DNA from: Escherichia coli
GTDB lineage: Bacteria > Pseudomonadota > Gammaproteobacteria > Enterobacterales > Enterobacteriaceae
Strand: one strand, 5' to 3'
Assembly: GCF_003018255.1 (NCBI RefSeq)
Contig: NZ_CP027440.1
Length of the DNA stretch: 64,000 nt
This document shows positions 1 to 47,003 of the stretch, piece after piece. Position 1 is the first letter of the stretch, and each line of letters opens with the position of its first letter. Under the pieces are notes generated by a model that was given only the letters and a program-made list of their open reading frames with translations, did not search any database and was not told where the DNA came from. The translations under genes and the position numbers were made by a program.

Positions 1-67
1 TGATGTCTGAAATTCGTTCGCTTTTGGCCTGCACGACCAGGCTGCAAACTTGCCAGTTAGTGTGCAT
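1..67 (-). CDS. napD: NapD, periplasmic nitrate reductase assembly chaperone (5' end only; gene continues past the window edge)
   Basis: Reverse complement of bases 1-67 translates to MHTNWQVCSLVVQAKSERISDI, which I recognise as the NapD N-terminus; start codon overlaps the 3' end of napF as in the nap operon. Confidence 0.75.
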   Translation of the reverse strand, partial: MHTNWQVCSLVVQAKSERISDI

Positions 68-551
68 GGAGATACTCCGCAGTTATGGCTGATACCGGAC
101 AGCTGGCTGCACATGCTCCACATCCGTTGCAAAGTTGGCTATTAAGTTGCGGCTGGTAGATCCCGGAGAGCGTCGGGCGAAAGATAATTGCCATTGGCTC
201 ACAGCTATCCTGACAGCGGCGGCATTCAACTGACTGATACGCCAGGCACGCCTCCCCGATGGTGAACAGCAAATCCCAGGCCCTGGTGTGGCGCGGAGAA
301 AATAGCGATTCGGGGCAAGCCTGCGCGCAGGCGTAACAGAAGCTGCACTCGTTATTTTTGAAATTAACGCTCGGATAGCCACCCGCGCCGCGTTGCAGAA
401 TGTTGTTTTCACAAGCATTAATACAGGCGTCGCAGCGAGTGCAATGGGTCAGAAAATGAGATTCATCACCGGACCAGGGCGGACGGATACCGTTACTGGC
501 TTTGCGCCAGCGACCAGTGAGTATGCCCCGACGGGATGCATCAATCTTCAC
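57..551 (-). CDS. napF: NapF, ferredoxin-type iron-sulfur protein of the periplasmic nitrate reductase operon
   Basis: 164-aa ORF with several CxxCxxCxxxCP 4Fe-4S motifs (e.g. CTRCDACINACE, CNGCGACAASCP); sits immediately upstream of napD. Confidence 0.9.
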   Translation of the reverse strand: MKIDASRRGILTGRWRKASNGIRPPWSGDESHFLTHCTRCDACINACENNILQRGAGGYPSVNFKNNECSFCYACAQACPESLFSPRHTRAWDLLFTIGEACLAYQSVECRRCQDSCEPMAIIFRPTLSGIYQPQLNSQLCNGCGACAASCPVSAITAEYLHAH

Positions 552-664
552 ATTGACCTTCCATCATTAACGCGCTCTGAAAATTGAGAGCGACCAAATA
601 AACCGCATAATTAATAAGCCATTTTTATAGCCGCTAAGATATTAAAGGATGTGTCAAAGATGCA

Positions 665-680
665 TACCCCGATCGGGGTA
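665..680. promoter_or_regulatory. Candidate NarP/NarL 7-2-7 heptamer inverted repeat in the napF control region
   Basis: Perfect palindrome TACCCCGATCGGGGTA upstream of napF; fits the NarL/NarP heptamer-pair class. Functional assignment is from general knowledge of nap regulation. Confidence 0.45.
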
Positions 681-958
681 AAACCTGTAGCAGGATCAAA
701 AGAGTGGCAGGAAGCGTGGCAAAAACGGGCTTTTGCTCACATTTCAAATGGTTATAAACATATTTATATAGCGATTAATTCGCCAGAGATATTTCTGCTG
801 GTTTGTTTTCTCATCAGAATTTAACACTAAAAGAGCAGGTAAAATTATCTGAATGTTCTTTAAGTTATTCATAAAGCAAATTAATAAATCTGATGAATAT
901 GTTAACCTTCAGCGACATCATCGGTGAAAACCTATAAATGAAGAAGGAAAGCAAAAAA

Positions 959-1447
959 ATGAAGACCATTCTACCTGCAGTATTGTTTGCCGCTTTCGCC
1001 ACCACTTCCGCCTGGGCGGCAGAAAGCGTCCAGCCACTGGAAAAAATCGCACCTTATCCACAAGCTGAAAAAGGCATGAAGCGCCAGGTGATTCAGTTAA
1101 CCCCGCAAGAAGATGAATCTACCCTGAAAGTAGAACTGTTAATCGGCCAGACGCTGGAAGTCGATTGCAATTTGCATCGTCTCGGCGGGAAGCTGGAAAG
1201 CAAAACGCTGGAAGGCTGGGGCTATGATTATTATGTCTTTGATAAAGTCAGTTCCCCGGTTTCGACGATGATGGCCTGCCCGGATGGCAAGAAAGAGAAG
1301 AAATTTGTCACCGCGTATCTGGGCGATGCCGGAATGCTGCGTTATAACAGCAAGCTGCCGATCGTGGTGTATACGCCAGACAATGTAGATGTGAAGTACC
1401 GCGTCTGGAAGGCGGAAGAGAAAATTGACAACGCGGTAGTTCGCTAA
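959..1447 (+). CDS. eco: Ecotin, periplasmic serine protease inhibitor
   Basis: ORF 938-1447; mature protein start [20 protein letters not shown] (signal peptide) at the internal ATG 959 gives the 162-aa size I recall for ecotin. Confidence 0.88.
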
Positions 1448-1474
1448 ACTGCTGTGAAGTGCTGCAACCGCCAG

Positions 1475-1590
1475 GTCGGATAAGGCGGTTACGCCGCATC
1501 CGACATCTAACGCCCGAGCCGGTTGCCTGATGCGACGCTGACGCGTCTTATCTGCATACGCCACATCCGGCATACCATGCCGGATGTGGC
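1475..1590. repeat. Cluster of REP-type (repetitive extragenic palindromic) elements between eco and mqo
   Basis: GC-rich imperfect palindromes of the familiar form GCCGCATCCGACA / GCCTGATGCGACGCTGACGCGTCTTATC / CCGGATGTGGC between convergent genes. Confidence 0.6.
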
Positions 1591-1596
1591 ACATCA

Positions 1597-3255
<1,659 letters not shown>

Positions 3256-3460
3256 TTACTTTTAGTCGCTTTATTGCAGGTGAGATTTGCGCGGCATCAA
3301 CGGTAACACTTAAGTAACAACATTTAAATAATGTTTATAAATTATATTCTAATTTTAGAAACATTATAATTTCGTTGATTAATTATAGGGTTATTAGAAA
3401 TGAAGGGATTTTTAGCATATTAACCTGGCGGCAGCAGTCCGCCAGGTCAGCGTCGTAATA

Positions 3461-5104
3461 TTATGCCGTCCGGGCAACGGCATCACGCGAAGCAGCATCG
3501 CGCTCTTCGCCTGTCAGCTCGCTAAGTTGCCCGTTGCGCATTTCCAGCAGGCGGTCGGCGTGGATAAAGTAATGATCATCATGACTGATGGCGAAAATAG
3601 TTTTACCCATCTCCTGCATCAGCGGCAGCAGCACCTGATAAAACTCACGACGGAAGTGTGGATCCTGATCCGCCGCCCATTCATCCAGCAGGATAATATC
3701 GCGTTCTTCTGCCAGCGCCAGCAACAGCGCCACGCGTTTTTTCTGCCCTTTTGATAACTTCAGGTTAACAATACGCCCGTTGCTTAACTCAAGCTTATGA
3801 GCCATTTTCAGCTGCGCCAGCCACTTCTCAACCAGTTGCGGGTTAGCGGGTTGCCCCTCCGGCCCCAGCAGTTGATCAAACAGCCAGACATCGGTAAACA
3901 CTGCCGAAAACAGTTTTCGATAATCTTCCGGTTGTTCGCCGCTGACAGGTTTGCCATCCAGCAAGATTTCGCCATTTTGTGGCTGGTACAAGCCCGTCAG
4001 CAACATCGCCAGCGTCGATTTTCCACTACCGTTGCCACCAATCAGAAACAGCAGCTCGCCACGTTTGATGGTGAGGTTAATTGGCCCAACGGAAAACGCG
4101 TTATCCTGATAGCTAAACGTCACGTTACGCAGCTCCAGCGTTTGCCAGTTGGGAAAAGCCTGCGGGCGCGGAAACTCTGCTTTGAAAGGCGCGAGCGCGA
4201 ATTTGTTCAGCTTGTTAAACGCCACCTGCGCCGTCAGCAGCGTCGGCAATGCGCCAACCGCCGAAAGCAGCGGCGTACGCAGGAATAACAGCGTCAACGA
4301 ATAGGTCGCAGCAACGTTGGTATCAGCCCAACCGAGACTGTTCGCCATCCAGAACACCAGGCCGATAGCGCCCAGCATCATGATGTTTGACCAGTTCACG
4401 GCACTAAGATGGAAGGTGTCTGCGCGAATAATATGATGGCGATACTCTTGCGCATCAGGAATGTAGAGGTTGTTAAACACATACTCGGCGCGTTCACGGT
4501 TCAGAGTCAGCTCTTTGCGCCCTTCGAGTACAGTTTGAAAATCCGTGTACAGCTTATCTTCGGTTTCACGCAGGGTCGCCATATGTTTGTACACCCGCGC
4601 CACCAGCACAAAACCGCCCCAGATGGTGACTGCCATCCAGATAGCCGTTACCAGCAACATTTTGCCCGACAGCATCCACAAATACGCCGCTGAACCGATA
4701 GTGAGAATGATCCCCTGCACCAGTTCCGGCAGACGCACAAAAGCAATGGTGATATTGCGCACATCGCTGGTTAATCCCGCCAGCAACGAGGCGCTACCGA
4801 GTTGTTCAATGCGCTCGACGTGAGTATCGAGAATCCGCTTGATAAATTCACTACGCAGTCGGTAAACGAAGTGATGCCCCAAAGTGGTGAGCGCCAGTTG
4901 CGATCCGAGAGTGACGGCCATCAACAGCAGCAATAACCCCAGAAACTCCGGCAATACCAGCAGACTGGTATCCGCCGTTTCGATAAGGCGCTGATTGATA
5001 AAAGCAATTAAGCCAATGCCTAATGCCGCACTGGCGAGGCTTAGCGCCATCACACTGATAAATGGCCAGCGATACTGCCGCCAGACAAGTACAAGAAGTT
5101 CCAT
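3461..5104 (-). CDS. yojI: ABC transporter fused permease/ATPase (microcin J25 efflux type)
   Basis: 547-aa ORF with N-terminal transmembrane region and C-terminal Walker A (GGNGSGKST), ABC signature (LSKGQKKR) and Walker B (ILLLDE). Confidence 0.88.
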
Positions 5105-5179
5105 GCAGAAAACCCGGACAATGAATTACAGCCCGCAGTTTAAACATCTTCGCGCGCACAGCAATAATAATTCTTATTT

Positions 5180-5830
5180 TTATTCTTTTTTACCTGCCTG
5201 ACGGAATGTCAGGTTGTAGCGGCAGTCGGTGGTGAGTGGATGAAACCCCGCTTTCAACGGTTGAATACCGTGATAAAACAGCCGCGATTCACCGCCCCAT
5301 ACCACCACATCGCCATGTTCCAGCAACAATCTTTTTAGCGGATCATTTCGTTTCAGGCCGCCAAATTGAAAAATCGCGGGTAAGCCCAGAGAAACAGAAA
5401 CAATCGGCGCGCGCAGATCCGGTTCGTCTTTATCCTGATGCAGCGACAGTTTCGCGCCAGGAGCGTAGCGGTTGATAAGACAAGCATCTGGCTGGAAATC
5501 TGGATAGCCCGCCGCCGTAGCCGCACGTTGACATAAATGATGAAAACTCTGCGGCATGGCGGGCCACGGTTTATTTGTTTGCGGATCAATGGGCGAATAG
5601 AGATAACCCTGCCGATGGGTGGTCCAGCCCAGACGCCCGCAGTTGGTCATCGCCACCGACATGGTATATCCGCCTGGAGTGACCATCTGGCGAAACGGCG
5701 ACTGGCTGGCAACGTCATTAATATCGCGGATCAGTTGCTCCGCAGCGTTAAAAGCAAAACGGTGCAAAATCACCGCTCCAGCCGCCAGTGGTTCTTGCCA
5801 CGGTTCAGCATCGGCAAACAGATCCAACAT
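5180..5830 (-). CDS. alkB: AlkB, Fe(II)/2-oxoglutarate-dependent DNA/RNA demethylase
   Basis: 216-aa ORF; start codon overlaps the ada stop by one base (ada-alkB operon arrangement); sequence recognised as AlkB. Confidence 0.9.
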   Translation of the reverse strand: MLDLFADAEPWQEPLAAGAVILHRFAFNAAEQLIRDINDVASQSPFRQMVTPGGYTMSVAMTNCGRLGWTTHRQGYLYSPIDPQTNKPWPAMPQSFHHLCQRAATAAGYPDFQPDACLINRYAPGAKLSLHQDKDEPDLRAPIVSVSLGLPAIFQFGGLKRNDPLKRLLLEHGDVVVWGGESRLFYHGIQPLKAGFHPLTTDCRYNLTFRQAGKKE

Positions 5831-6894
5831 TACCTCTCCTCATTCTCAGCTTCGCGGCGCAGCAGTTGCGCTTTACGCGACACGCCCCAGCGGTAACCGG
5901 AAAGTGTGCCATCACCACGGACCACCCGATGACAAGGTATAACGATAGCTAGCTTGTTGGCGGCACAGGCGCTGGCAACGGCCCGTACCGCTTTCGGTTT
6001 GCCAATGGCGTTAGCCAGTTGCTGATAACTGACGGTTTCACCGCAAGGTATCGTGCGCAGTGCCTGCCAGACTTGTTGCTGAAAAGCAGTGCCGCGAATG
6101 TCCAGTGGTAACGTCAGCGGCGTATCGCGTTGATTGAGGCTGGCGATCACTTCACGCACATGTTGCTGAAACGTAAGATCGGCAGGCGCGCTGTCGGCAG
6201 CGGGAAACATCTGCTGTAACTCGCTGATTAGTGTCGCGTCATCATCGCCCAGTAATATCGCGCAAATCCCCCGCTCACTTTCTGCCACCAGGCAACGGCC
6301 CAGCTCACAATCAGCCAGCGCGTAACGCACCGCCAGATTTTCGCCACCGTGACGGAATTGTTTAGCCGTCATGCCCAGCGTTTCGTCGGCTTTGCGGTAG
6401 TAACTGCTGCTGTCGGGGAATCCGGCGTTAAGAATAGATGTAGTCACGCTCTCCCCTTTCGCCAGCAATTCGCGCAAACGGCGAGCGCGCCAGGCCTGTT
6501 GCCAGGCTTTAGGCGTCATTCCGGTAGTCGCTTTAAACAACCGATGCAAATGAAATGGACTCATCGCCACCTGGTCGGCTAAGGCTTCCAGCGTTACAGG
6601 CGTTTCCTGTTCCAGAAGTCGGCAGGCGTGGGTAATTTTATCAAGGCGATGTTGCAGGGGATTGGCTTTGTCTGGCTGACAACGTTTGCAGGGACGAAAG
6701 CCAGCGGCAAGCGCCTCGCTGGCATTTGCGTAGAAGGAGACATTTTCCCGCAAGGCATGTCTGGCGCGGCAAGACGGACGGCAAAAGATACCCGTGGTGC
6801 GCACGGCGAAAACGAATTCGCCGTCGGCGTTCGGGTCGCGGGCTAAGACAGATTGCCAGCGTTGATCGTCAGTTAAACATGTGGCGTTTTTCAT
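5830..6894 (-). CDS. ada: Ada, bifunctional transcriptional activator / O6-methylguanine-DNA methyltransferase
   Basis: 354-aa ORF with N-terminal Cys cluster (CRPSCRARH...CKRC), AraC-type HTH, and C-terminal methyltransferase active site PCHRV. Confidence 0.92.
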   Translation of the reverse strand: MKNATCLTDDQRWQSVLARDPNADGEFVFAVRTTGIFCRPSCRARHALRENVSFYANASEALAAGFRPCKRCQPDKANPLQHRLDKITHACRLLEQETPVTLEALADQVAMSPFHLHRLFKATTGMTPKAWQQAWRARRLRELLAKGESVTTSILNAGFPDSSSYYRKADETLGMTAKQFRHGGENLAVRYALADCELGRCLVAESERGICAILLGDDDATLISELQQMFPAADSAPADLTFQQHVREVIASLNQRDTPLTLPLDIRGTAFQQQVWQALRTIPCGETVSYQQLANAIGKPKAVRAVASACAANKLAIVIPCHRVVRGDGTLSGYRWGVSRKAQLLRREAENEER

Positions 6895-6967
6895 AATCAG
6901 CTCCCTGGTTAAGGATAGCCGTTAGTCTGCCCGGTCACCATCGCGCAAAAACCAACAATCTTGCGCT

Positions 6968-8023
6968 TTAATTTTTTTCGCTGATAAGGAAGCTTTTAAA
7001 CTGCGGCGACATCCAGGTTTTAAAATTATCGCCCTCTTTGGTGATCATGTAGACCGCCAGTCCTTCCCGGCGAACAACCTCTTTGGCTTTCTCCGGCCCG
7101 AGCACCATTAAGCCAGTATCCCAGGCATCGGCTTCCAGCGCCGTCGGGGCAATCACCGTCACGGATACGAGATTGTGTTCGATAGGACGCCCGGTTTGCG
7201 GATCGATAACATGAGAAAGACGTTTGCCGTCCAGTTCGTAATAGTTACGGTAGCTGCCAGAGGTACTAATCCCATGACCGTTGATATCCACCACGGCCTG
7301 AACCGCGTTTTCTTTATCGGTTGGCTTTTGAATCGCTACCCGCCACGGCTTGCCAGCACCGTTCATACCACGGCTGTTCAGCGCGCCGCCCACCGACACC
7401 AGATAGCGGGAAATCCCTTCCTGCTCCATCAAGCGTGCCAGGTGATCCGCCGCATAACCTTCGCCGACGGTGGAGAGATCGACATATAAATCCGGCAGGT
7501 CTTTTTGCAGATATTGCTGATGCGACTGATTAATGACCGTCAGGTGCTGTAAGCCGGTTTTGGCTTTCATCGCATCGATCTGTTCCTGGCTCGGAATTTG
7601 AACCGGTTGTTGTTCCGGACCAAAGCCCCACAGATTCACCAGCGGCCCGACGGTTATATCCATCGCGCCATCGGTCTTCGCGCCAATGCGCAGCGAGGTA
7701 GTGACGATATCGGCCATCGCTTCACTTACCGGCCACGGCGACAAACTTTGCGAGTCGTTAAAGCGCATCAGCGCGGAATCTTTTTTATAGGTCGAAAGCA
7801 GCTGATCGTCAGCGTCCAGTTGGGTCTGAATCTTTTCTTTAAGTTCGGCACTGCGTTTGGCGTCAATGCCCGGGATGCTGGCACGCCAGAAGGTACCCAT
7901 GGTTTTGCCTTCAAGAACGGTAACTTCAGTAGCGTGGGTTTTGGCGGGTTGTGGTTTTTGATCGCAACCAACAAAGAAGAGCGCGGCAGCCAGCAGTGCC
8001 ACGCGGGTAAAGCTTATTTCCAT
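6968..8023 (-). CDS. apbE: ApbE/Ftp FAD:protein FMN transferase (lipoprotein)
   Basis: 351-aa ORF with lipoprotein signal (LFFVGC); sequence recognised as ApbE. Confidence 0.88.
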   Translation of the reverse strand: MEISFTRVALLAAALFFVGCDQKPQPAKTHATEVTVLEGKTMGTFWRASIPGIDAKRSAELKEKIQTQLDADDQLLSTYKKDSALMRFNDSQSLSPWPVSEAMADIVTTSLRIGAKTDGAMDITVGPLVNLWGFGPEQQPVQIPSQEQIDAMKAKTGLQHLTVINQSHQQYLQKDLPDLYVDLSTVGEGYAADHLARLMEQEGISRYLVSVGGALNSRGMNGAGKPWRVAIQKPTDKENAVQAVVDINGHGISTSGSYRNYYELDGKRLSHVIDPQTGRPIEHNLVSVTVIAPTALEADAWDTGLMVLGPEKAKEVVRREGLAVYMITKEGDNFKTWMSPQFKSFLISEKN

Positions 8024-8093
8024 ACGTGATTATCCTCATGCGAACGGTCGCAAGAGTACACCAAAAAACTGTGTTTGTACGCTGAAAACAATG

Positions 8094-8119
8094 AAAAAAG
8101 GGCCCGCAGGCCCTTTGTT
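8094..8119 (-). terminator. Rho-independent terminator downstream of ompC
   Basis: Perfect hairpin GGGCC-CGCA-GGCCC flanked by an A-tract on one side and TTTGTT on the other; on the minus strand it is followed by TTTTTT just after the ompC stop. Confidence 0.75.
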
Positions 8120-8134
8120 CGATATCAATCGAGA

Positions 8135-9280
<1,146 letters not shown>

Positions 9281-9392
9281 TTATATGCCTTTATTTGCTT
9301 TTTTATGCCACTGCATACTGATTAACCCTCATTAATCAGTCGGCAAGTCCATTCTCCCCAAAAATGCAGAATAATCCAACACGAATATGATA

Positions 9393-9450
9393 CTAAAACT
9401 TTTAAGATGTTTCATTTATCGCTATAGATGTTTCAGAATGTAAATGAAAG
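9393..9450. promoter_or_regulatory. OmpR binding region (C1-C3 type sites) of the ompC promoter
   Basis: Minus-strand reading gives TTTACATTCTGAAACATCTATAGCGATAAATGAAACATCTTAAAAGTT, tandem TTTACA/GAAACA OmpR half-site repeats upstream of ompC. Confidence 0.7.
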
Positions 9451-9599
9451 GGAACTTTTTAAGATTATTGCGGAATGACCAAATAAGCACCTAACATCAA
9501 GCAATATTAATTCAAGGTTAAAATCAATAACTTATTCTTAATTATTTGACAGCACTGAATGTCAAAACAAAACCTTCACTCGCAACTAGAATATCTTCC

Positions 9600-9692
9600 G
9601 CTATCATCATTAACTTTATTTATTACCGTCATTCATTTCTGAATGTCTGTTTACCCCTATTTCAACCGGATGCCTCGCATCCGGTTTTTTTT
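9600..9692 (+). ncRNA. micF: MicF antisense sRNA (represses ompF), transcribed divergently from ompC, with its own intrinsic terminator
   Basis: Sequence GCTATCATCATTAACTTTATTTATTACCGTCATTCATTTCTGAATGTCTGTTTACCCCTATTTCAACCGGATGCCTCGCATCCGGTTTTTTTT matches micF as I remember it; ends in the hairpin CCGGATGCCTCGCATCCGG plus U-tract. Confidence 0.9.
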
Positions 9693-10003
9693 ACCCTTCT
9701 TTACACACTTTTCATTATTCTGTGCTACCACAGATAAACTATAACGCTTGTTAACTATTTCACAAATAATTAACATCAGCATAATTTCCAGCAATCTTCG
9801 TTTATTTGCAATTAATTTCGTTAGGCTTTTTGTAGGTTATTTGTACAGCAAAATGGCGCTTGTACATCTATTTCCCCCAATGCAGGATGATAAATATCAC
9901 GGGAGAATAGAGAATCATCAATCCGGTAAGAGTCTGGAATTTCACACTGTACCCTTTATACTGCCCTATCACTTCGCGAAGTTTTAACAGGTCATAAACA
10001 CGA

Positions 10004-12676
10004 ATGCGTCAGAAAGAGACAACGGCCACGACCCGCTTTTCACTCCTACCGGGGAGCATTACCCGCTTCTTTTTACTGTTGATCATTGTGTTACTGGTGA
10101 CGATGGGTGTAATGGTACAAAGCGCCGTTAACGCCTGGCTGAAAGATAAAAGTTACCAGATTGTCGACATTACCCACGCTATCCAAAAGCGCGTCGATAC
10201 CTGGCGTTACGTGACCTGGCAGATCTACGACAACATTGCCGCGACGACCACCCCCTCCTCCGGCGAAGGTTTACAAGAGACGCGCCTGAAACAGGATGTC
10301 TACTATCTGGAGAAACCACGCCGCAAAACGGAAGCGTTAATCTTTGGCTCTCACGACAACTCAACGCTTGAGATGACTCAACGGATGTCCACTTATCTGG
10401 ATACATTGTGGGGCGCAGAAAATGTACCGTGGTCGATGTATTACCTGAATGGTCAGGATAACAGTCTGGTGCTGATCTCAACCCTGCCCCTCAAAGATCT
10501 CACCTCCGGATTTAAAGAATCGACCGTCAGCGACATTGTTGATTCACGTCGTGCAGAGATGTTGCAACAGGCCAACGCCCTCGATGAACGCGAAAGCTTT
10601 TCTAACATGCGCCGCCTGGCCTGGCAGAACGGTCATTACTTTACCTTGCGTACCACGTTCAACCAGCCGGGACATCTGGCAACGGTTGTGGCTTTTGATC
10701 TGCCGATTAATGATTTGATCCCACCGGGTATGCCGCTGGACAGTTTCCGCCTTGAGCCAGACGCGACGGCAACGGGAGACAATGATAATGAGAAAGAAGG
10801 GACGGATAGCGTCAGTATCCACTTTAACAGTACGAAGATTGAAATCTCCTCGGCACTCAACTCTACCGATATGCGCCTGGTCTGGCAGGTTCCTTATGGC
10901 ACCTTATTGCTGGATACGTTGCAAAACATTCTGCTGCCACTGCTGCTGAACATCGGTTTGCTGGCGCTGGCGTTATTTGGCTATACCACATTTCGCCATT
11001 TCTCCAGTCGCAGTACAGAAAGTCTACCCAACACGGCGGTCAATAACGAATTGCGCATTTTACGGGCAATCAATGAAGAGATAGTCTCACTGCTGCCGCT
11101 CGGCCTGCTGGTTCACGATCAGGAATCGAACCGCACTGTCATAAGTAACAAAATTGCCGATCATTTGCTGCCGCATTTGAATCTGCAAAACATCACCACC
11201 ATGGCGGAACAGCATCAGGGGATTATTCAGGCGACGATCAATAACGAGCTGTATGAGATCCGCATGTTCCGCAGCCAGGTTGCGCCGCGCACACAAATTT
11301 TCATTATTCGCGATCAGGATCGCGAAGTGCTGGTAAACAAGAAACTCAAGCAGGCGCAGCGTCTGTATGAGAAAAACCAGCAGGGGCGGATGACCTTTAT
11401 GAAAAACATTGGCGATGCGCTGAAAGAACCCGCACAGTCCCTGGCGGAGAGCGCGGCTAAACTCAACGCCCCGGAAGGCAAACAACTGACGAATCAGGCG
11501 GATGTGCTGGTGCGGCTGGTCGATGAAATACAGTTAGCGAACATGCTTGCGGACGATAGCTGGAAAAGTGAGACGGTGCTGTTCTCCGTGCAGGATTTAA
11601 TTGATGAAGTTGTGCCTTCAGTGTTGCCTGCCATCAAGCGTAAAGGTCTGCAACTGCTGATTAACAATCATCTGAAAGCACACGACATGCGCCGCGGCGA
11701 TCGCGATGCCTTACGACGTATTTTGCTGTTACTGATGCAATATGCCGTGACCTCAACGCAATTGGGAAAAATCACCCTTGAGGTTGATCAGGATGAGTCC
11801 TCCGAAGACCGCCTGACGTTCCGTATTCTGGACACTGGAGAAGGCGTAAGCATTCATGAAATGGATAATTTGCACTTCCCGTTTATCAACCAGACCCAAA
11901 ACGATCGCTATGGCAAGGCGGACCCGCTGGCATTCTGGCTGAGCGATCAACTGGCGCGTAAACTGGGCGGTCATTTAAACATCAAAACGCGGGATGGGCT
12001 TGGTACTCGCTACTCTGTGCATATCAAAATGCTCGCAGCTGACCCGGAAGTTGAAGAGGAAGAAGAGCGTTTACTGGATGATGTCTGCGTAATGGTGGAT
12101 GTTACTTCGGCAGAAATTCGGAATATTGTCACTCGCCAGTTAGAAAATTGGGGTGCAACCTGTATCACACCCGATGAAAGATTAATTAGTCAAGATTATG
12201 ATATCTTTTTAACGGATAATCCGTCTAATCTTACTGCCTCTGGCTTGCTTTTAAGCGATGATGAGTCTGGCGTACGGGAAATTGGGCCTGGTCAATTGTG
12301 CGTCAACTTCAATATGAGCAACGCTATGCAGGAAGCGGTCTTACAATTAATTGAAGTGCAACTGGCGCAGGAAGAGGTGACAGAATCGCCTCTGGGCGGA
12401 GATGAAAATGCGCAACTCCATGCCAGCGGCTATTATGCGCTCTTTGTAGACACAGTACCGGATGATGTTAAGAGGCTGTATACTGAAGCAGCGACCAGTG
12501 ACTTTGCTGCGTTAGCCCAAACGGCTCATCGTCTTAAAGGCGTATTTGCCATGCTAAATCTGGTACCCGGCAAGCAGTTATGTGAAACGCTGGAACATCT
12601 GATTCGTGAGAAGGATGTTCCAGGAATAGAAAAATACATCAGCGACATTGACAGTTATGTCAAGAGCTTGCTGTAG
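10004..12676 (+). CDS. rcsD: RcsD (YojN) phosphotransfer protein of the Rcs phosphorelay
   Basis: 890-aa ORF with N-terminal TM segments, degenerate kinase-like region and C-terminal HPt domain; upstream of and overlapping rcsB. Confidence 0.9.
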   Translation: MRQKETTATTRFSLLPGSITRFFLLLIIVLLVTMGVMVQSAVNAWLKDKSYQIVDITHAIQKRVDTWRYVTWQIYDNIAATTTPSSGEGLQETRLKQDVYYLEKPRRKTEALIFGSHDNSTLEMTQRMSTYLDTLWGAENVPWSMYYLNGQDNSLVLISTLPLKDLTSGFKESTVSDIVDSRRAEMLQQANALDERESFSNMRRLAWQNGHYFTLRTTFNQPGHLATVVAFDLPINDLIPPGMPLDSFRLEPDATATGDNDNEKEGTDSVSIHFNSTKIEISSALNSTDMRLVWQVPYGTLLLDTLQNILLPLLLNIGLLALALFGYTTFRHFSSRSTESLPNTAVNNELRILRAINEEIVSLLPLGLLVHDQESNRTVISNKIADHLLPHLNLQNITTMAEQHQGIIQATINNELYEIRMFRSQVAPRTQIFIIRDQDREVLVNKKLKQAQRLYEKNQQGRMTFMKNIGDALKEPAQSLAESAAKLNAPEGKQLTNQADVLVRLVDEIQLANMLADDSWKSETVLFSVQDLIDEVVPSVLPAIKRKGLQLLINNHLKAHDMRRGDRDALRRILLLLMQYAVTSTQLGKITLEVDQDESSEDRLTFRILDTGEGVSIHEMDNLHFPFINQTQNDRYGKADPLAFWLSDQLARKLGGHLNIKTRDGLGTRYSVHIKMLAADPEVEEEEERLLDDVCVMVDVTSAEIRNIVTRQLENWGATCITPDERLISQDYDIFLTDNPSNLTASGLLLSDDESGVREIGPGQLCVNFNMSNAMQEAVLQLIEVQLAQEEVTESPLGGDENAQLHASGYYALFVDTVPDDVKRLYTEAATSDFAALAQTAHRLKGVFAMLNLVPGKQLCETLEHLIREKDVPGIEKYISDIDSYVKSLL

Positions 12677-36691: not shown

Positions 36692-36699
36692 GGTTGTTG

Positions 36700-36830
36700 T
36701 TTGGATTCATCCGGCAACCGCGCCAATGCCTGATGCGACGCTTGCCGCGTCTTATCAGGCCTACAAATGCTCTCCGTAGGCCTGATAAGGCGTTTACGCC
36801 GCATCCGGCAATAGTGATGGTCAGACAGCG
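36700..36830. repeat. REP-type palindromic element cluster between ubiG and yfaL
   Basis: Repeated GCCTGATGCGACGCTTGCCGCGTCTTATCAGGCCTAC / GCCTGATAAGGCGTTTACGCCGCATCCGGCA units. Confidence 0.6.
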
Positions 36831-36831
36831 A

Positions 36832-39800
36832 TTACCATTTCACCGTCATCGACAAAAACCCTGCCGTCTGGGCAAAATCATCACTCCCTTTCTGCCACGC
36901 CACGCTGCCGCGCAGGGACACTCGCTGACTGATATTGCCCGTGACTCCCACTTTTATTTCACCCCGTTGCTTCACCCCATCGTCACTGATAGTGCTGCCA
37001 TCTTCTTCAATTTCCGTCGCATGGGGATCGTGATAATAATTCAGATCTAATGTTGGTATGACATGAACAGCGGTACGCCATTCGCTGTGTAAACCCAGCC
37101 GCGTCTGAATATCATCACCCTGCGATTGTGACACGCGCGCATGGTTAGCGGCGGTAAAATCATCCTGCTGCACGCCCTGATAAATCACCTGCGCCTGCGG
37201 TTCAATCACCACACCACGCCCCGGTAACCATTGATACCCGGCTTCCAGCGAGGCGATAATCCCCGACGAGTGGTAATGATCCACGCCATCGTCTTGTTCA
37301 GAAACATCATTGTTAAACCACGCATATTGCAGCCAGCTATCCAGCCAGACCCCCTGCTTCTGATTACCGTGCTGATACCAGCTTGAGGTCAGCCCAACGG
37401 CATAACCGTGGTTCTGGTTATCGGCGCGAGTTCCGCTCATATTCGAGCGGCTGTCGCCCTGGTTATCGCTGTAGCCACCAACAATCCCAAGCATCCACTC
37501 GCCATCATCACCCCAGTGCCTGCTAAACAGATCGCCGCTAAGCTGCACCGTAGAAGTGTCTTCATGCTGAGCCAGTTGCCCTGCCGCCGTGTAATGATAA
37601 CGCCCGCCGATAACGCGTAAATTCAGCGTCTGACCATCGCCACCAGCGTGATCGCGTCGCTCCATCACAAATGCCTGATTTGCCGCACGTAGGTTATTAA
37701 AATATCCACCAACTTTGGCATTCAACACCGGCTGGTAAGCAGGCGTAGGTCCAGGGTCGGGGGTTGGGTCGGGATCCGGCGTGGGATCAGGATCTGGAGT
37801 CGGGTCCGGATCGGGCGGCGGCGTCGGAGTGACTTCTTGCGATCGCAGATACCAGTCATTGTTATCTTCCACCAGCGTATAGTCATACGCCCCCATATTG
37901 ACGTAGCCGCTTCCTGCCAGACGGAACTGCGCATTGTTTTGAAACTGCGTGGGATCAGCTGCGAAATCAACCACTTTAATACCTGTAGATGTCGGCTCAC
38001 CAATACCCGTAATGGGGTTAATTACCACGGCCGTGTTGCCAGCAGTATTACCGTTCAATACCAGTTGGTCACTTGCCGAGTCATCGCCGTTTAATTCGCT
38101 GTCGAGCAGTAGCGTACCGCCGCCGGTATAATCACCATTTACCGTCAGCGTGTCGCCAGCGACGCCATTTTGCAGGCTAATCGCACCGGACGTATTGGTC
38201 AGATTGCCATTAACCGTCACGTCGGAAAGATAAGTCAGGCTGTCAGTTTCAAGGTTGGTATTAAGCTCGCCTGTCAGCGTCACGCCATCGGTGGCATTCA
38301 CCAACGTACCGTCGCCGCTAAACAGCGAGGCATCCAGCACCTGGTTCGTATCCTGCTGCGTCAATCGCAACACAGTACCATCGGTTATGTCGATATCGCC
38401 GCCAGAGGTGGCATCGATTGAGCGAATATCCTGATTTTGCCCGGTTTCAAAAACACCGTCTTCCCCCACCCACAGTGAAGAAACATAAGGAATAATATTC
38501 TCCGCTTCACCTTTTAGCGTTCCGTCCTCCACACGTACCGCAGACGTCGCAGTGCCGCTGGCGGTCAACTCCAGCGTACCGCCGCCACTTTTAGTCAACG
38601 TGCTTACGCTATCCAGTTGTTGCCCGGTACTATCCGCCATCAACCCGCCCCATTGCGTATCTACGCCATCCTCAACGTGTATTTCGCCATCAGCGCGCAT
38701 TTCAATATTCCTGCCCTGACCTGTTGTAGCCGAGCGAGTGTCAACATCAGTCGTCACATCCATTTCACTGTGTTGTTGGGGATCTGTGAAGATCACTGAA
38801 CGGTTGTAACTTGTGTCCCCCAATTGCGAATTATCGCTGACTTCAAGCGTACCGGAGGCGATTTGCGTATTACCGAGATAACCGTTGTTATTCGCCAGCG
38901 TTACGCGCTGATCCCCCGCATTAATGACGACATAAACGCCATTCTGGCTGGCATCACTGCCGCCAATATGTAAATCATCGCCACTGCTGATATCAACGAC
39001 ATCATTACTGCCAATCACTGTCCCCCCGCTGCCGCTGATTTGCAGACCGTCATTGTATGAGCTATCGCCATCCCAGGTGGTGAAATCAGAGAGATCCAAT
39101 ACTCCGCCATTTAGCACGATCGATTGCGGATCGCTCTGCATTGCCCGTAAATCGGCCTGATTCCCCGCTAGCGACAATACGGCGTTATCTTCCACCACAA
39201 TATCGCCGGTTAATGCCATCGACTGCGCCCCTGTCAGGAGATAGCTGCCATCTTGCGCTACCGTCAACTGTCCTTCACCCTGAATCGAGCCGGAAAAACC
39301 GCCCTGGTTTACGGTAACATTGCCGCCTGCGTCGATATTCAAAATGCCATTAGCAAAACCGGTTAATGAGTGCACAAACGTTTGTTGTGTATTGCCAACA
39401 TTCAGTTCTGCCTGATACTCAGAATGAACAGTGCTGCCGACCATCAGACCAAAGCAATCCTGCGGATCGCTCTGACAGTGCGTGTCGCCGACATTCATTA
39501 ACTCATCGCTGCGCCCCAACGTCACCTCGCCATTCTGGATACTTATCTCGCCGGTAAACGCATTATTGTCGGCATTGAGGACTAACTCTCCCGCTCCCTC
39601 TTTAACGATGACTCCCGTTCCGGCAAGAGAATCAATCGCGCCATCGTTGCTGGTATTGCCTATTACCAGCGTTTTATCGGCGGCAATGTTAAATTCAGCC
39701 ACACTATGACCGATATACATAAAGCCCCCCGCCGCTGCCGTCGCCGAATGGTCATATCCCGAGGCGCTGTTATTTTCATCAATCATCACACCATTGTTTT

Positions 39801-40596
39801 GGTCATAATTATCATCAACAGAAATATCAATAAGATACGGGGATGTGGTGCTGCTGGTATAAATTGCTCCGCCATAACCTTCTGCATAGTTATTGGTAAA
39901 GGAGGTATTATTAATTATCGTTTTTCCTGAAAGATGTGTGTTATCCGTACTATTATCCGTAACATCAATAGCGCCGCCATCCCCATCACTATAACTTGTT
40001 GATGTATATGCCTGGTTATTATTAAAAGCATCATCACTTAAATAGTCGTCATTATTGATGGTATAAATTGCACCGCCTTTGCCGTCATTAGCGATGTTAT
40101 TGTGAAATACGGCGTTAGTGACACGTAAATCGGCGGCACCGGTATCATTGGTACCGGCAGAATAGATTGCTCCGCCATAGCCTCCTGCAACATTACTGTC
40201 GAAAATAACATTCGCAAGATTTATCGTTGAGTTTTCTTTAGCAAAGATAGCCCCACCATTATTATATTCGCCACTAACCGAGTTATCAGCAAACAGGGTC
40301 ATCCCTGTTTCATTTTGTGGTGAAATCGTAAATTCAGCACTTTGCTGCAAAAATACTGCGCCACCGCTGGCATTATTGGCCATACCCGAAAAAATCAACC
40401 ATTGCCCATCCGCGATGCTCCAGTCCTGCATATTGCCCGAAAGGCTTTGCCTGCTGGCCTGACAGTTCGCTTTGATATCATATCCCTGGCATGAATCGAT
40501 GACCGCTGCGGCACCGTTACCAGAGAAAAGAGATGCAATCATTGACGGGAGTAAAGATAAATACTCCTTGCGTAGAAAGATAATCCGCATATTCAT
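36832..40596 (-). CDS. yfaL: YfaL, AIDA-I-type autotransporter adhesin
   Basis: About 1250-aa ORF with signal peptide, long beta-helical passenger with G/N/T/S-rich repeats, Pro-Thr/Pro-Asp linker and C-terminal beta-barrel ending in W. Start may be the ATG at 40590. Confidence 0.85.
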   Translation of the reverse strand: MNMRIIFLRKEYLSLLPSMIASLFSGNGAAAVIDSCQGYDIKANCQASRQSLSGNMQDWSIADGQWLIFSGMANNASGGAVFLQQSAEFTISPQNETGMTLFADNSVSGEYNNGGAIFAKENSTINLANVIFDSNVAGGYGGAIYSAGTNDTGAADLRVTNAVFHNNIANDGKGGAIYTINNDDYLSDDAFNNNQAYTSTSYSDGDGGAIDVTDNSTDNTHLSGKTIINNTSFTNNYAEGYGGAIYTSSTTSPYLIDISVDDNYDQNNGVMIDENNSASGYDHSATAAAGGFMYIGHSVAEFNIAADKTLVIGNTSNDGAIDSLAGTGVIVKEGAGELVLNADNNAFTGEISIQNGEVTLGRSDELMNVGDTHCQSDPQDCFGLMVGSTVHSEYQAELNVGNTQQTFVHSLTGFANGILNIDAGGNVTVNQGGFSGSIQGEGQLTVAQDGSYLLTGAQSMALTGDIVVEDNAVLSLAGNQADLRAMQSDPQSIVLNGGVLDLSDFTTWDGDSSYNDGLQISGSGGTVIGSNDVVDISSGDDLHIGGSDASQNGVYVVINAGDQRVTLANNNGYLGNTQIASGTLEVSDNSQLGDTSYNRSVIFTDPQQHSEMDVTTDVDTRSATTGQGRNIEMRADGEIHVEDGVDTQWGGLMADSTGQQLDSVSTLTKSGGGTLELTASGTATSAVRVEDGTLKGEAENIIPYVSSLWVGEDGVFETGQNQDIRSIDATSGGDIDITDGTVLRLTQQDTNQVLDASLFSGDGTLVNATDGVTLTGELNTNLETDSLTYLSDVTVNGNLTNTSGAISLQNGVAGDTLTVNGDYTGGGTLLLDSELNGDDSASDQLVLNGNTAGNTAVVINPITGIGEPTSTGIKVVDFAADPTQFQNNAQFRLAGSGYVNMGAYDYTLVEDNNDWYLRSQEVTPTPPPDPDPTPDPDPTPDPDPTPDPGPTPAYQPVLNAKVGGYFNNLRAANQAFVMERRDHAGGDGQTLNLRVIGGRYHYTAAGQLAQHEDTSTVQLSGDLFSRHWGDDGEWMLGIVGGYSDNQGDSRSNMSGTRADNQNHGYAVGLTSSWYQHGNQKQGVWLDSWLQYAWFNNDVSEQDDGVDHYHSSGIIASLEAGYQWLPGRGVVIEPQAQVIYQGVQQDDFTAANHARVSQSQGDDIQTRLGLHSEWRTAVHVIPTLDLNYYHDPHATEIEEDGSTISDDGVKQRGEIKVGVTGNISQRVSLRGSVAWQKGSDDFAQTAGFLSMTVKW

Positions 40597-41122
40597 CTAA
40601 CCATCATTTTCTATAAGATGGCGTATTTAATCGCATTATGCGATATAGGGTATTTTTCTTTTGTAAATTCTGCCCCTGATGTAATAACTATTTTGTTATT
40701 ATCTGATAATTAATTTAGATGCATCACAATTCAAATTAATAACTTTAAGGTAAATCGGTTATATTTAAACTAAATTAAAGCAATAAATAATATTCTTATA
40801 ATAAATACAAAAGTAACAAATTGGCTTAGTATTTAACAATAACCGCATAGAAAACAACCATTTCGACATCAACAATCGCTTACATTCGCTTATATATTGA
40901 CCACAACTGATACATCAGATTATGTGATGACTCGTGCTTAGATCAATTTTTGCAATCATTAGCAAAAAGATTAATAAACCATCTATATCAATTTATCCAA
41001 CCTATTCTGCCGTTCAAGAAATCACCGAACAGTTATTTTTAACAAATTTTTCTCTTCCCATTGACTTTCCCGGACACCTTGTCTGACCTAAGGTGCGCGA
41101 AAGCCACTTTTTCCTTCCTGAG

Positions 41123-41143
41123 TTATCCACAAAGTTATGCACT
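41123..41143. promoter_or_regulatory. DnaA box(es) in the nrdAB promoter region
   Basis: TTATCCACA (consensus DnaA box) followed by TTATGCACT about 150 bp upstream of nrdA. Confidence 0.55.
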
Positions 41144-41160
41144 TGCAAGAGGGCCATTTT

Positions 41161-41208
41161 CACACTATCTTGCAGTGAATCCCAAACATACCCCCTATAT
41201 ATAGTGTT
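41161..41208. promoter_or_regulatory. Tandem NrdR boxes of the nrdAB promoter
   Basis: CACACTATCTTGCAGTG and CCCTATATATAGTGTT, two palindromic NrdR-type boxes with the spacing typical of class I RNR promoters. Confidence 0.65.
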
Positions 41209-41284
41209 CTAAGCAGCTTCCCTCACTACAGGTAGTCTGCATGAAACTATTGCGGAAAGAATTCCAAAAACAGGTACGACATAC

Positions 41285-43570
41285 ATGAATCAGAATCTGC
41301 TGGTGACAAAGCGCGACGGTAGCACAGAGCGCATCAATCTCGACAAAATCCATCGCGTTCTGGATTGGGCGGCAGAAGGACTGCATAACGTTTCGATTTC
41401 CCAGGTCGAACTGCGCTCCCACATTCAGTTTTATGACGGTATCAAGACCTCTGACATCCACGAAACCATTATCAAGGCTGCCGCAGACCTGATCTCCCGT
41501 GATGCGCCGGATTATCAGTATCTCGCCGCGCGCCTGGCGATCTTCCACCTGCGTAAAAAAGCCTACGGCCAGTTTGAGCCGCCTGCGCTGTACGACCACG
41601 TGGTGAAAATGGTCGAGATGGGCAAATACGATAATCATCTGCTGGAAGACTACACGGAAGAAGAGTTCAAGCAGATGGACACGTTTATCGATCACGACCG
41701 TGATATGACCTTCTCTTATGCTGCCGTTAAGCAGCTGGAAGGCAAATATCTGGTACAGAACCGCGTGACCGGCGAAATCTACGAAAGCGCCCAGTTCCTT
41801 TATATTCTGGTTGCCGCGTGCCTGTTCTCGAACTACCCGCGTGAAACGCGCCTGCAATACGTGAAGCGTTTTTACGACGCGGTTTCCACATTTAAAATTT
41901 CGCTGCCGACGCCAATCATGTCCGGCGTGCGTACCCCGACTCGTCAGTTCAGCTCCTGCGTACTGATCGAGTGCGGCGACAGCCTGGATTCCATCAACGC
42001 CACCTCCAGCGCGATTGTTAAATACGTTTCCCAGCGTGCCGGGATCGGCATCAACGCCGGGCGTATTCGTGCGTTGGGTAGCCCGATTCGCGGTGGCGAA
42101 GCATTCCACACCGGCTGTATTCCGTTTTACAAACATTTCCAGACAGCGGTGAAATCCTGCTCTCAGGGCGGTGTGCGCGGCGGTGCGGCAACACTGTTCT
42201 ACCCGATGTGGCATCTGGAAGTGGAAAGCCTGCTGGTGTTGAAAAACAACCGTGGGGTTGAAGGCAACCGCGTGCGTCATATGGACTACGGGGTACAAAT
42301 CAACAAACTGATGTATACCCGTCTGCTGAAAGGTGAAGATATCACCCTGTTCAGCCCGTCCGACGTACCGGGGCTGTACGACGCGTTCTTCGCCGATCAG
42401 GAAGAGTTTGAACGCCTGTACACCAAATATGAGAAAGACGACAGCATCCGCAAGCAGCGTGTGAAAGCCGTTGAGCTGTTCTCGCTGATGATGCAGGAAC
42501 GTGCGTCTACCGGTCGTATCTATATTCAGAACGTAGACCACTGCAACACCCACAGCCCGTTTGATCCGGCTATTGCACCAGTGCGCCAGTCTAACCTGTG
42601 CCTGGAAATCGCCCTACCGACCAAACCACTGAACGACGTCAACGACGAGAACGGTGAAATCGCGCTGTGTACGCTTTCTGCTTTCAACCTGGGCGCAATT
42701 AACAGCCTGGATGAACTGGAAGAGCTGGCAATTCTGGCGGTTCGCGCACTCGACGCACTGCTGGATTATCAGGATTACCCGATCCCGGCCGCTAAACGTG
42801 GAGCGATGGGGCGTCGTACGCTGGGTATTGGTGTGATCAACTTCGCTTACTACCTGGCGAAGCACGGTAAACGCTACTCCGACGGCAGCGCCAACAACCT
42901 GACGCATAAAACCTTCGAAGCCATTCAGTATTACCTGCTGAAAGCGTCTAATGAGCTGGCGAAAGAGCAAGGCGCGTGCCCGTGGTTTAACGAAACCACT
43001 TACGCGAAAGGGATCCTGCCGATCGATACCTATAAGAAAGATCTGGATGCCATCGCTAATGAGCCGCTGCATTACGACTGGGAAGCACTGCGTGAGTCAA
43101 TCAAAACGCACGGCCTGCGTAACTCCACGCTTTCTGCTCTGATGCCGTCAGAGACCTCTTCGCAGATCTCTAACGCCACTAACGGTATTGAACCGCCGCG
43201 TGGTTACGTCAGCATCAAAGCGTCGAAAGACGGTATTCTGCGCCAGGTGGTGCCGGACTACGAGCATCTGCACGACGCCTATGAACTGCTGTGGGAAATG
43301 CCGGGTAACGATGGCTATCTGCAACTGGTGGGTATCATGCAGAAATTTATCGATCAGTCGATCTCTGCTAACACCAACTACGATCCGTCACGCTTCCCGT
43401 CAGGAAAAGTGCCGATGCAGCAACTGCTGAAAGACCTGCTCACCGCCTACAAATTCGGGGTCAAAACGCTGTATTATCAGAACACCCGTGACGGTGCTGA
43501 AGACGCACAAGACGATCTGGTACCGTCAATCCAGGACGATGGCTGCGAAAGCGGCGCATGTAAGATCTGA
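41285..43570 (+). CDS. nrdA: Ribonucleoside-diphosphate reductase 1, alpha subunit
   Basis: 761-aa ORF beginning [26 protein letters not shown] (ATP-cone), with the class I RNR catalytic core. Confidence 0.95.
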
Positions 43571-43635
43571 TATTGAGATGCCGGATGCGGCGTAAAATGC
43601 CTTATCCGGCATTAAACTCCCAACAGGACACATTC

Positions 43636-45724: not shown

Positions 45725-45926
45725 ACCCTATCGCCTGTCGTTTTTTATTAACGACAATGACTATAGATGTTTAGCTGAGGAAAATCTTAATAATACGTGT
45801 TGTATTGACGAGTATCTTATGCCGGGAACAAGTCATCTCGCTCAAAATAATTGCAATTAAGGATAACCCACAGACTTTAATGAAGAGTGGTATCGGATAG
45901 CACATAAGTGCCATCCGGTAGTTAAT

Positions 45927-47003
45927 TTACTCTTTATTAAGAAATTTTACTGCCTTATCAGGGAAATCAGTAAATAGCCCATTTACACCCGCTTTGTTAT
46001 ACAGAGCATCATATAACTGATTCACATCAGTAGTGTATTCAGGCAGTTTATCTGACCGCACGGTATAAGGATGCACTACCAGCTTGTTCTGCTGAGCATC
46101 TTGCACCATGCCAGTGAGTTTGATATTACCCGGCTGCGATGTCTCCTCAATCAACATATGGTAATCCGGACCAATACCATCTGCATATTCCGCCACCTGT
46201 TTCATGGCTCCCGGCTTAAACATCCAGTCGTAGTTGTAATTAACCCAGCTTCCGTCCGGCTGTTTCTGCTGCGTTTCATTCCAGTCGGTATAGGCAATCA
46301 GCTGTACCAGATTGAGGTCCATGCCCATTTTAGGTTCCAGCTCATTCTTAATACGCTTCAGTTCATCGGCATCAAAACATTGCAAATAAACTTTGTCGTC
46401 CTTACCGCTGTAACCATATTTCTTCAGCACTTCCAGCGTTTTTGCCGCAATATCCTTCCCTTCCTGATGATGGAACCACGGCGCTTTAATTTCTGGATAG
46501 ATACCGATATTTTTCCCGGTAGAGTGATTTAACCCCTGAACAAATTCAATCTCTTCTTCGAAAGTGTGTACCCGGAAGTCAGATTTACCCATCGGGAAAC
46601 GGCCCGGATAAGTCTGTACTTTCTTACCGTTTTCAATATCGAAACCTTCGGTAAATTTCAGTGACTTAATTTCATCGAGCGTGAAATCTATCGCGTAGTA
46701 ACGACCGTCTTTGCGCGCCCGATCCGGGAAACGATCGGCAACATCAGTAACACGATCGAGATAATGGTCATGCAGGACAACCAGATGGTCGTCCTTCGTC
46801 ATCACCAAATCCTGTTCCAGATAATCCGCTCCCTGCGCATACGCCATCGCTTTTGCTGGCAGCGTATGCTCCGGCAAATATCCACTGGCACCGCGATGGG
46901 CGATGACTATTTTTTCGTTGCTGTCCGCCGCCATTGCACTACTTCCCATGACCATAGTGCTCATCATGATCGCCATGCTAAGGTTTTTCAGCGTCAATTT
47001 CAT
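45927..47003 (-). CDS. glpQ: Periplasmic glycerophosphodiester phosphodiesterase
   Basis: Start set at MKLTLKNLSMAIMM (358 aa, signal peptide) inside the 377-codon ORF; HRG catalytic motif (IAHRGASGYLPEHT). Confidence 0.9.
   Translation of the reverse strand: MKLTLKNLSMAIMMSTMVMGSSAMAADSNEKIVIAHRGASGYLPEHTLPAKAMAYAQGADYLEQDLVMTKDDHLVVLHDHYLDRVTDVADRFPDRARKDGRYYAIDFTLDEIKSLKFTEGFDIENGKKVQTYPGRFPMGKSDFRVHTFEEEIEFVQGLNHSTGKNIGIYPEIKAPWFHHQEGKDIAAKTLEVLKKYGYSGKDDKVYLQCFDADELKRIKNELEPKMGMDLNLVQLIAYTDWNETQQKQPDGSWVNYNYDWMFKPGAMKQVAEYADGIGPDYHMLIEETSQPGNIKLTGMVQDAQQNKLVVHPYTVRSDKLPEYTTDVNQLYDALYNKAGVNGLFTDFPDKAVKFLNKE

Follow-up and report, generated by a model that had tools for sequence, protein, structure and literature searches.

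Promoter islands were defined in Escherichia coli as stretches of 300 bp or more in which potential transcription start points are exceptionally dense (Panyukov & Ozoline). They are described as binding RNA polymerase and forming open complexes with very low transcription, and the authors read them as heterochromatin-like DNA that accompanies horizontally acquired genes. One of the 78 islands listed is a 534-bp tract of K-12, '2342143_534 yfaL(-)/ypaB(-)' (Panyukov & Ozoline 2013, PMC3661553 Table 1), which was scored as H-NS-bound 'according to all studies' (Grainger, Kahramanoglou, Oshima) and flagged as tied to foreign genes (PMC3661553). Other cryptic E. coli adhesin loci also appear in the list, namely ycgV, yadN, fimB/fimE, sfmA, elfA and ecpR (PMC3661553). 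Given that the gap between yfaL and ypaB measures just 423 bp, the 534-bp island must cover essentially the whole tract between these genes. We analyzed this locus in a 64,000-nt stretch of E. coli chromosomal DNA, hereafter the window. The tract found there is orthologous to the K-12 island, and like it is extremely AT-rich and dense in promoter-like sites. It differs in being a minority haplotype, 88% identical to the K-12 tract from which H-NS binding is known.

Three further systems invite comparison. As in H-NS xenogeneic silencing, a surface-protein gene limited to one lineage is AT-rich in its promoter and 5' coding sequence, H-NS occupies this DNA in K-12 and expression is low; a difference is that the tract abuts nrdAB, which is essential, highly expressed and reportedly H-NS-modulated. 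The upstream region of nrdAB, studied by the Fuchs laboratory, is reported to contain Fis and DnaA sites, an upstream AT-rich element and a 45-bp inverted repeat. This region is contiguous with the tract, and its left 90 bp fall inside the interval 40597-41100 that a first-pass annotation of the window had singled out; the 420-bp core of the tract, however, shows no conservation alongside nrdA, and loci without yfaL lack it. Finally, the regulatory region of agn43 (Ag43) also lies upstream of an AIDA-type autotransporter adhesin gene, but the tract has a single GATC in place of a GATC cluster and gives no sign of Dam/OxyR phase variation.

Layout of the yfaL-nrdA locus

Gene annotation was taken from a RefSeq record that is 100% identical to the window. 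The annotated order is gyrA, ubiG, yfaL (-), ypaB (-), nrdA (+), nrdB and yfaE, and the features discussed below are collected in Table 1. The names and geometry given by the first-pass annotation agree with this record, which places the interval between yfaL and nrdA. The annotated ATG of yfaL is at 40590, and a longer open reading frame begins at 40596. A 1-kb query around the spacer matched 5425 of the 5426 complete E. coli genomes; over this query strain DETEC-S792 is 100% identical to the window and K-12 is 93.5% identical.

Elsewhere in the window, a prophage at 1-12535 adjoins rcsB and carries an integrase (11246-12535), an excisionase and a LexA-family repressor. The gap between nrdA and nrdB (about 43571-43635 here) is ~168 bp longer in K-12, where the additional sequence probably consists of REP-type repeats. 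The inaA-glpQ intergenic region (45800-46400) is strongly unlike its K-12 counterpart, in which pseudogene fragments sit.

Table 1. Features of the yfaL-nrdA locus, in window coordinates
Feature	Position	Strand	Basis
yfaL/ehaC, AIDA-I family autotransporter adhesin gene (YfaL/EhaC)	36832-40590	-	annotation and ORF list
Low-GC 5' part of yfaL coding region, GC 0.37-0.48, continuous with spacer	39700-40590	-	composition profile and GC per 300 nt
AT-rich hypervariable yfaL-linked spacer, GC 0.271	40591-41010	.	composition, divergence, length, ubiquity
Sigma-70-like TTGATC-16-CATAAT, candidate yfaL promoter	40919-40946	-	consensus scan; same hexamers in PMC3946193
Sole strongly bent segment predicted in spacer, around T5/A5 tracts	40925-40975	.	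wedge model, 29 degrees, >99th percentile of window
nrdAB regulatory module (upstream elements, core promoter, 5' UTR)	41011-41284	+	alignments
ypaB, annotated 47-aa ORF	41014-41157	-	annotation
Short AT-rich element TTATTTTTAACAAATTTTTCTCTT	41032-41056	+	read from sequence, invariant across Escherichia; position inferred
Imperfect 45-bp inverted repeat, cell-cycle control element of nrd, upstream of DnaA boxes	41063-41107	+	fold; position inferred
DnaA boxes TTATCCACA (41123-41131) and TTATGCACT (41135-41143)	41123-41143	+	direct repeat, sequence, literature
nrdAB core promoter: -35 TTGCAA, -10 TATCTT, 17-nt spacer	41143-41171	+	sequence; position inferred
NrdR boxes	~41162-41177, 41190-41207, 41224-41239	+	description in PMC12176259; positions inferred
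nrdA, class Ia ribonucleotide reductase alpha subunit	41285-43570	+	annotation

Composition of the AT-rich tract

The interval 40597-41100 has a GC content of 0.300 (AT 0.700) against 0.512 for the whole window, a departure of about -4.8 standard deviations (the standard deviation of 504-bp windows being 0.044). It forms part of the lowest-GC 0.5 kb of the 64 kb, 40553-41056 (GC 0.278), and the strong AT-richness noted in the first pass is fully borne out. The next independent low, GC 0.313 at 9351-9854, lies within the prophage, and all lower windows overlap the yfaL-nrdA locus. Composition is uneven within the interval, with GC at 0.271 in the core (40591-41010) and 0.42 in the nrdAB regulatory block to which 41011-41100 belongs. 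On its other side the low-GC domain extends ~900 bp into the 5' part of yfaL (GC about 0.37-0.48), so that, as in H-NS silencing regions, AT content is far above average across both the spacer and the beginning of the coding sequence. The interval had also been credited with little coding potential, and indeed the list of open reading frames contains none of at least 60 aa in 40597-41100; short ones of 30-50 codons exist.

We then asked how much of the tract's character goes beyond base composition. The interval holds 11 mixed A/T runs of at least 8 nt, the longest of 13 nt, which amounts to 21.8 per kb; elsewhere in the window the figure is 2.6 per kb. The long A/T runs described in the first pass are therefore present, but their number and length show no excess over composition-matched shuffles (shuffle P = 0.17-0.8), and homopolymer runs of A or T do not exceed 5 nt, a length below that predicted from composition (P = 0.97). 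TpA steps in the interval are likewise as frequent as in shuffled sequence. Curvature, which had been proposed as a check, was calculated with a wedge model. It predicts the one bend listed in Table 1 and a second in the nrd module, at 41045; over most of its length the tract has average curvature, and AA/TT helical periodicity is absent from it (highest z = 1.4). Strong predicted curvature is limited to one segment of the spacer and does not seem to be a general property of the tract.

The high-affinity H-NS motif TCGATAAATT is not enriched, with two approximate matches in the tract and 79 found against 64 expected window-wide. A consensus scan found 4 promoter-like sites in the 420-bp spacer and 17 in the surrounding 20 kb, a density ~11-fold higher in the spacer; dense promoter-like sites therefore characterize this haplotype as well as the listed K-12 orthologue, and their count matches that of composition-matched shuffles (4 versus 3.8). 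Taken together, the tests suggest that the tract looks like an H-NS target through its composition and not through special motifs or phased A-tracts.

The same features bear on whether the tract might be a phase-variation switch, built on Dam/OxyR control as at agn43, on DNA inversion or on slipped-strand repeats. Like Ag43, YfaL belongs to the autotransporter adhesins, and the tract contains several weak inverted repeats. However, as 75-90% AT-rich matches, these repeats are no more than chance would produce, no homopolymer is longer than 5 nt, and there is one GATC in all of 40500-41300 (at 40941, inside the candidate yfaL promoter). We regard a switch as exceedingly improbable.

The border between the spacer and nrdAB regulatory DNA

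To place the tract in an evolutionary context, we aligned 40300-41320 of the window with the corresponding DNA of K-12, E. albertii, SCPM-O-B-8794, E. whittamii and Escherichia sp. E1V33. Across 40591-41010 identity between Escherichia species is 0.39-0.60 (0.33-0.60 to the window by sub-block), and it rises to 0.96 at 41011. The six sequences fall into three haplotype classes over 40591-41010, with core identity between classes close to that of aligned unrelated AT-rich DNA. Identity is only 0.53-0.64 in the region coding for the YfaL signal peptide (40451-40590). Beyond 41011, the 274 bp up to 41284 (GC 0.42) are 88-99% identical in every Escherichia pair and 89-99% identical to the window; by sub-block, identity between species is 0.94-0.96 over 41011-41200 and 0.69-0.82 in the 5' UTR part, 41201-41284. 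Judged by these alignments, the interval drawn in the first pass joins two modules that meet at a sharp border at 41010/41011. Its description as a yfaL spacer holds for 40597-41010, which is linked to yfaL, but not for the last 90 bp (41011-41100), which are nrdAB regulatory DNA and include the short AT-rich element along with the greater part of the 45-bp inverted repeat.

Despite the turnover of its sequence, the spacer has kept a constant length of 411-421 bp in all six lineages, with the true yfaL start codon and the conserved motif at 41011 taken as its ends, and a GC content of 0.26-0.29 in every one of them. Its invariant runs are four in number and 5-6 nt long: TTGTAA at 40661, TTACA at 40880, and ATCAA at 40942 and 40987.

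Within E. coli a milder version of this pattern is seen. The K-12 counterpart of 40591-41010 is 88% identical, that is, 12% different overall and about 20% different in 40619-40860. This divergence belongs to a larger block of low identity to K-12 that runs from the yfaL passenger domain at 38300 to ~40900 in the spacer, after which identity is 98-99%; per 100-bp bin, the passenger part at 38300-40400 is 59-90% identical, mostly 60-80%. Because one diverged block spans both the passenger domain and the spacer, the tract is inherited with the yfaL allele, and the alignments tie it evolutionarily to that allele and not to nrdA. The genes flanking yfaL are 95-100% identical to K-12, and the yfaL passenger here represents a deeply diverged adhesin allele.

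The spacer itself was found in 5425 of 5426 complete E. coli genomes, of which 439 carry the haplotype of the window at 95% identity or more over 420 bp, making it a minority type. Spacers of the E. albertii/SCPM type and of the E. whittamii type were found in none of the 5426, which argues for species-level divergence and against a polymorphism shared across species. For the same reason SCPM-O-B-8794, although labelled E. coli, probably belongs to another Escherichia lineage. Compared with the E. albertii allele, yfaL in this record (L031) carries one additional base at codon 3 and is probably frameshifted.

Other loci were collected in two ways. A scan with the DnaA-box pair pattern GTTATCCACANNGTTATGCAC returned, among the matches listed, mostly unrelated sites from many phyla; four Escherichia loci among them were useful (L005, L031, L104 and L106). 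The nrdAB neighborhoods of other genera were obtained through YfaE homologues. In Salmonella, Klebsiella oxytoca, Atlantibacter, Cronobacter and Yokenella the order is gyrA-ubiG-nrdA-nrdB-yfaE, and neither yfaL nor the AT-rich spacer lies between ubiG and nrdA in these five genera. Their ubiG-nrdA spacer is 340-355 bp long with a GC content of 0.36-0.41, and its homology to the E. coli DNA upstream of nrdA starts at ~41012 (AAGAAATCA...TTGAC), the same border as within Escherichia. Given that these genera lack yfaL and share this border, yfaL and its ~420-bp AT-rich flank (about 36.75-41.01 kb) are best described, on gene order and alignment, as an Escherichia-specific insertion between ubiG and nrdA. 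Like H-NS silencing regions, the tract is thus associated with a lineage-specific gene, and the insertion agrees with the foreign-gene flag on the K-12 island (PMC3661553). The ubiG-yfaL intergenic region at 36692-36831 (GC 0.56), made up of REP/BIME-like palindromic units, bounds the yfaL insertion on its left when compared with the other genera.

These comparisons bear on two other accounts of the tract. It could serve mainly as far-upstream control DNA for nrdAB, holding Fis or IciA sites or an AT-rich element for cell-cycle timing, with its adjacency to yfaL incidental. Reviews do report repression of nrdAB by H-NS (PMC4009431, PMC12176259), and the second predicted bend, at 41045, would fit such a role. 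Yet the elements that could be placed (the AT-rich element, the 45-bp inverted repeat and the DnaA boxes) all lie at 41011 or beyond. Across Escherichia, conservation together with nrdA was seen only in the last 90 bp of the interval and not in 40591-41010: the core is essentially unalignable between species, whereas the nrd-proximal DNA is 88-99% identical. Five genera, moreover, have the same nrdAB operon and lack the core. An nrdAB-control role for the core is, in our judgment, quite unlikely, although K-12 may have Fis sites far upstream.

Alternatively, the tract could be unselected DNA that came with yfaL and became AT-rich by mutation bias, H-NS binding it as it binds any AT-rich DNA. 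Near-random identity between species (0.39-0.60) is the rapid turnover expected of non-functional DNA, only four short runs are fully conserved, and the A/T runs, TpA steps and promoter-like sites are those of shuffled sequence. Against this, length (411-421 bp) and GC (0.26-0.29) are steady over six lineages, the tract is kept in all but one of the 5426 E. coli genomes, and homopolymer runs are shorter than composition predicts. In addition, the nearest DNA upstream of yfaL beyond the tract belongs to the divergent nrdAB unit, so the tract must contain the yfaL promoter. That the tract is mere filler therefore strikes us as unlikely.

The regulatory module to the right of the border overlaps the annotated gene ypaB, which raised the question of whether the region hides a gene, be it ypaB, another short open reading frame or a small RNA. 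Besides the ypaB annotation (41014-41157), short frames of 30-50 codons are present, and P1-like phages have an open reading frame, upfO, over homologous DNA. In three of the six Escherichia sequences (E. albertii, E. whittamii and E1V33), however, the ypaB frame is interrupted by a premature stop at codon 18 although the DNA is 89-97% identical, and its variable sites show no third-codon-position bias. No Rfam family matched (best 16.8 bits against a gathering threshold of 94.2), and the core is too poorly conserved to encode anything common. These patterns make a hidden gene highly improbable. They suggest that ypaB is probably not a real gene and that conservation across its block is regulatory, not coding. 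Within that block, the 45-bp inverted repeat folds with 13 pairs (z = -2.3).

The arrangement of the nrdAB promoter differs between genera. Escherichia has its DnaA boxes immediately 5' of the -35 element; in Salmonella, Klebsiella, Atlantibacter, Cronobacter and Yokenella (L125-L129), boxes TTATCCACA and TGTGGATAA lie in the 5' UTR, downstream of the conserved NrdR box. When 41067-41284 was compared with these five loci, 41067-41190 was barely alignable.

Copies of the DNA upstream of nrdAB, 115-130 bp long and 83-95% identical, occur in P1/P7-like phages and at 235 places on phage-plasmid records. The phage copy (window 41032-41161; L003 4001-4139; L004 1501-1615) contains the AT-rich element, the 45-bp inverted repeat, both DnaA boxes and the -35 element, and adjoins hot, a homologue of the DNA polymerase III theta subunit. 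GenBank AF234173 notes its likeness to an 'E. coli DNA region containing two predicted DnaA boxes'.

H-NS, RNA polymerase and expression of yfaL

Binding of both H-NS and RNA polymerase is documented for the K-12 orthologue. Besides the ChIP studies compared for the promoter islands, genomic SELEX placed an H-NS site in the spacer of K-12 (yfaL<HNS>nrdA; Shimada et al., PMC3946193), and the RpoD holoenzyme also bound the yfaL/nrdA spacer (PMC3946193). The first-pass annotation had called the region H-NS-bound and suggested examining ChIP-seq data. That binding is published, by ChIP and SELEX, for the 88%-identical K-12 tract, which was bound in all compared ChIP studies, and by extension the haplotype in the window would be expected to bind H-NS too. 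The gene affected is a different matter: according to the reviews, H-NS binds the promoter region of nrdAB and represses this operon, and they name nrdAB, not yfaL (PMC4009431, PMC12176259). In the accessible literature we found no paper in which yfaL is derepressed in an hns mutant.

The same SELEX study predicted a yfaL promoter, TTGATC-16-CATAAT (PMC3946193 Table 1), with the hexamers of our candidate. If real, this promoter (40946-40919) would imply a yfaL leader of ~320 nt. Seo et al. reported regulation by GadE and GadX, whose two ChIP-exo peaks, 2342146-2342207, sit at the island's left end (the island starts at 2342143). A biofilm phenotype of yfaL was obtained with a constitutive promoter inserted ahead of the gene (PMC3764049). 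In the coordinates of the window, the candidate promoter lies well inside the spacer. The GadE/GadX peaks we take to lie at the yfaL start codon. Under laboratory conditions yfaL is reportedly not expressed.

We consider it probable that the tract is the upstream and leader region of yfaL and acts as an H-NS-bound platform that keeps yfaL expression low while also dampening nrdAB. According to this model, 40591-41010 would provide both the upstream DNA and the leader of a cryptic adhesin gene restricted to Escherichia, and the AT-rich core together with the low-GC first ~900 bp of yfaL would form a platform, defined by composition, on which H-NS could nucleate and spread. RNA polymerase would bind promoter-like sites that arise by chance in such AT-rich DNA, with productive transcription of yfaL staying very low. 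H-NS filaments may trap or exclude the polymerase, the state described for promoter islands and xenogeneic silencing, and would in that case be what keeps yfaL silent. The AT-binding activators GadX and GadE could relieve silencing under particular conditions. H-NS on the tract might also dampen the adjacent nrdAB promoter, whose regulatory DNA starts abruptly at 41011.

A more specific reading follows from the six lineages, which keep length and composition while identity falls to 39-60%. Selection may act on the length of the spacer (411-421 bp) and its ~27% GC and not on its sequence, making it an H-NS 'buffer' or insulator; we hold this to be unlikely. It would be a similarly long shot that such an insulator keeps yfaL silent while setting the influence of H-NS and supercoiling on the nrdAB promoter, 165 bp past the edge.

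The AT-richness, H-NS occupancy, promoter-island status and foreign-gene association of this locus were already known from publications on the K-12 orthologue. Our additions are small: the exact border between the modules, the recognition of yfaL as an Escherichia-specific islet, and the finding that the spacer has kept its length and composition during sequence decay. The tract is an H-NS target of the textbook type, and the value of the analysis lies mainly in its correct annotation. More speculatively, if length and composition are indeed selected, the spacer would offer a natural example of a composition-only constraint on H-NS-bound DNA beside an essential promoter.
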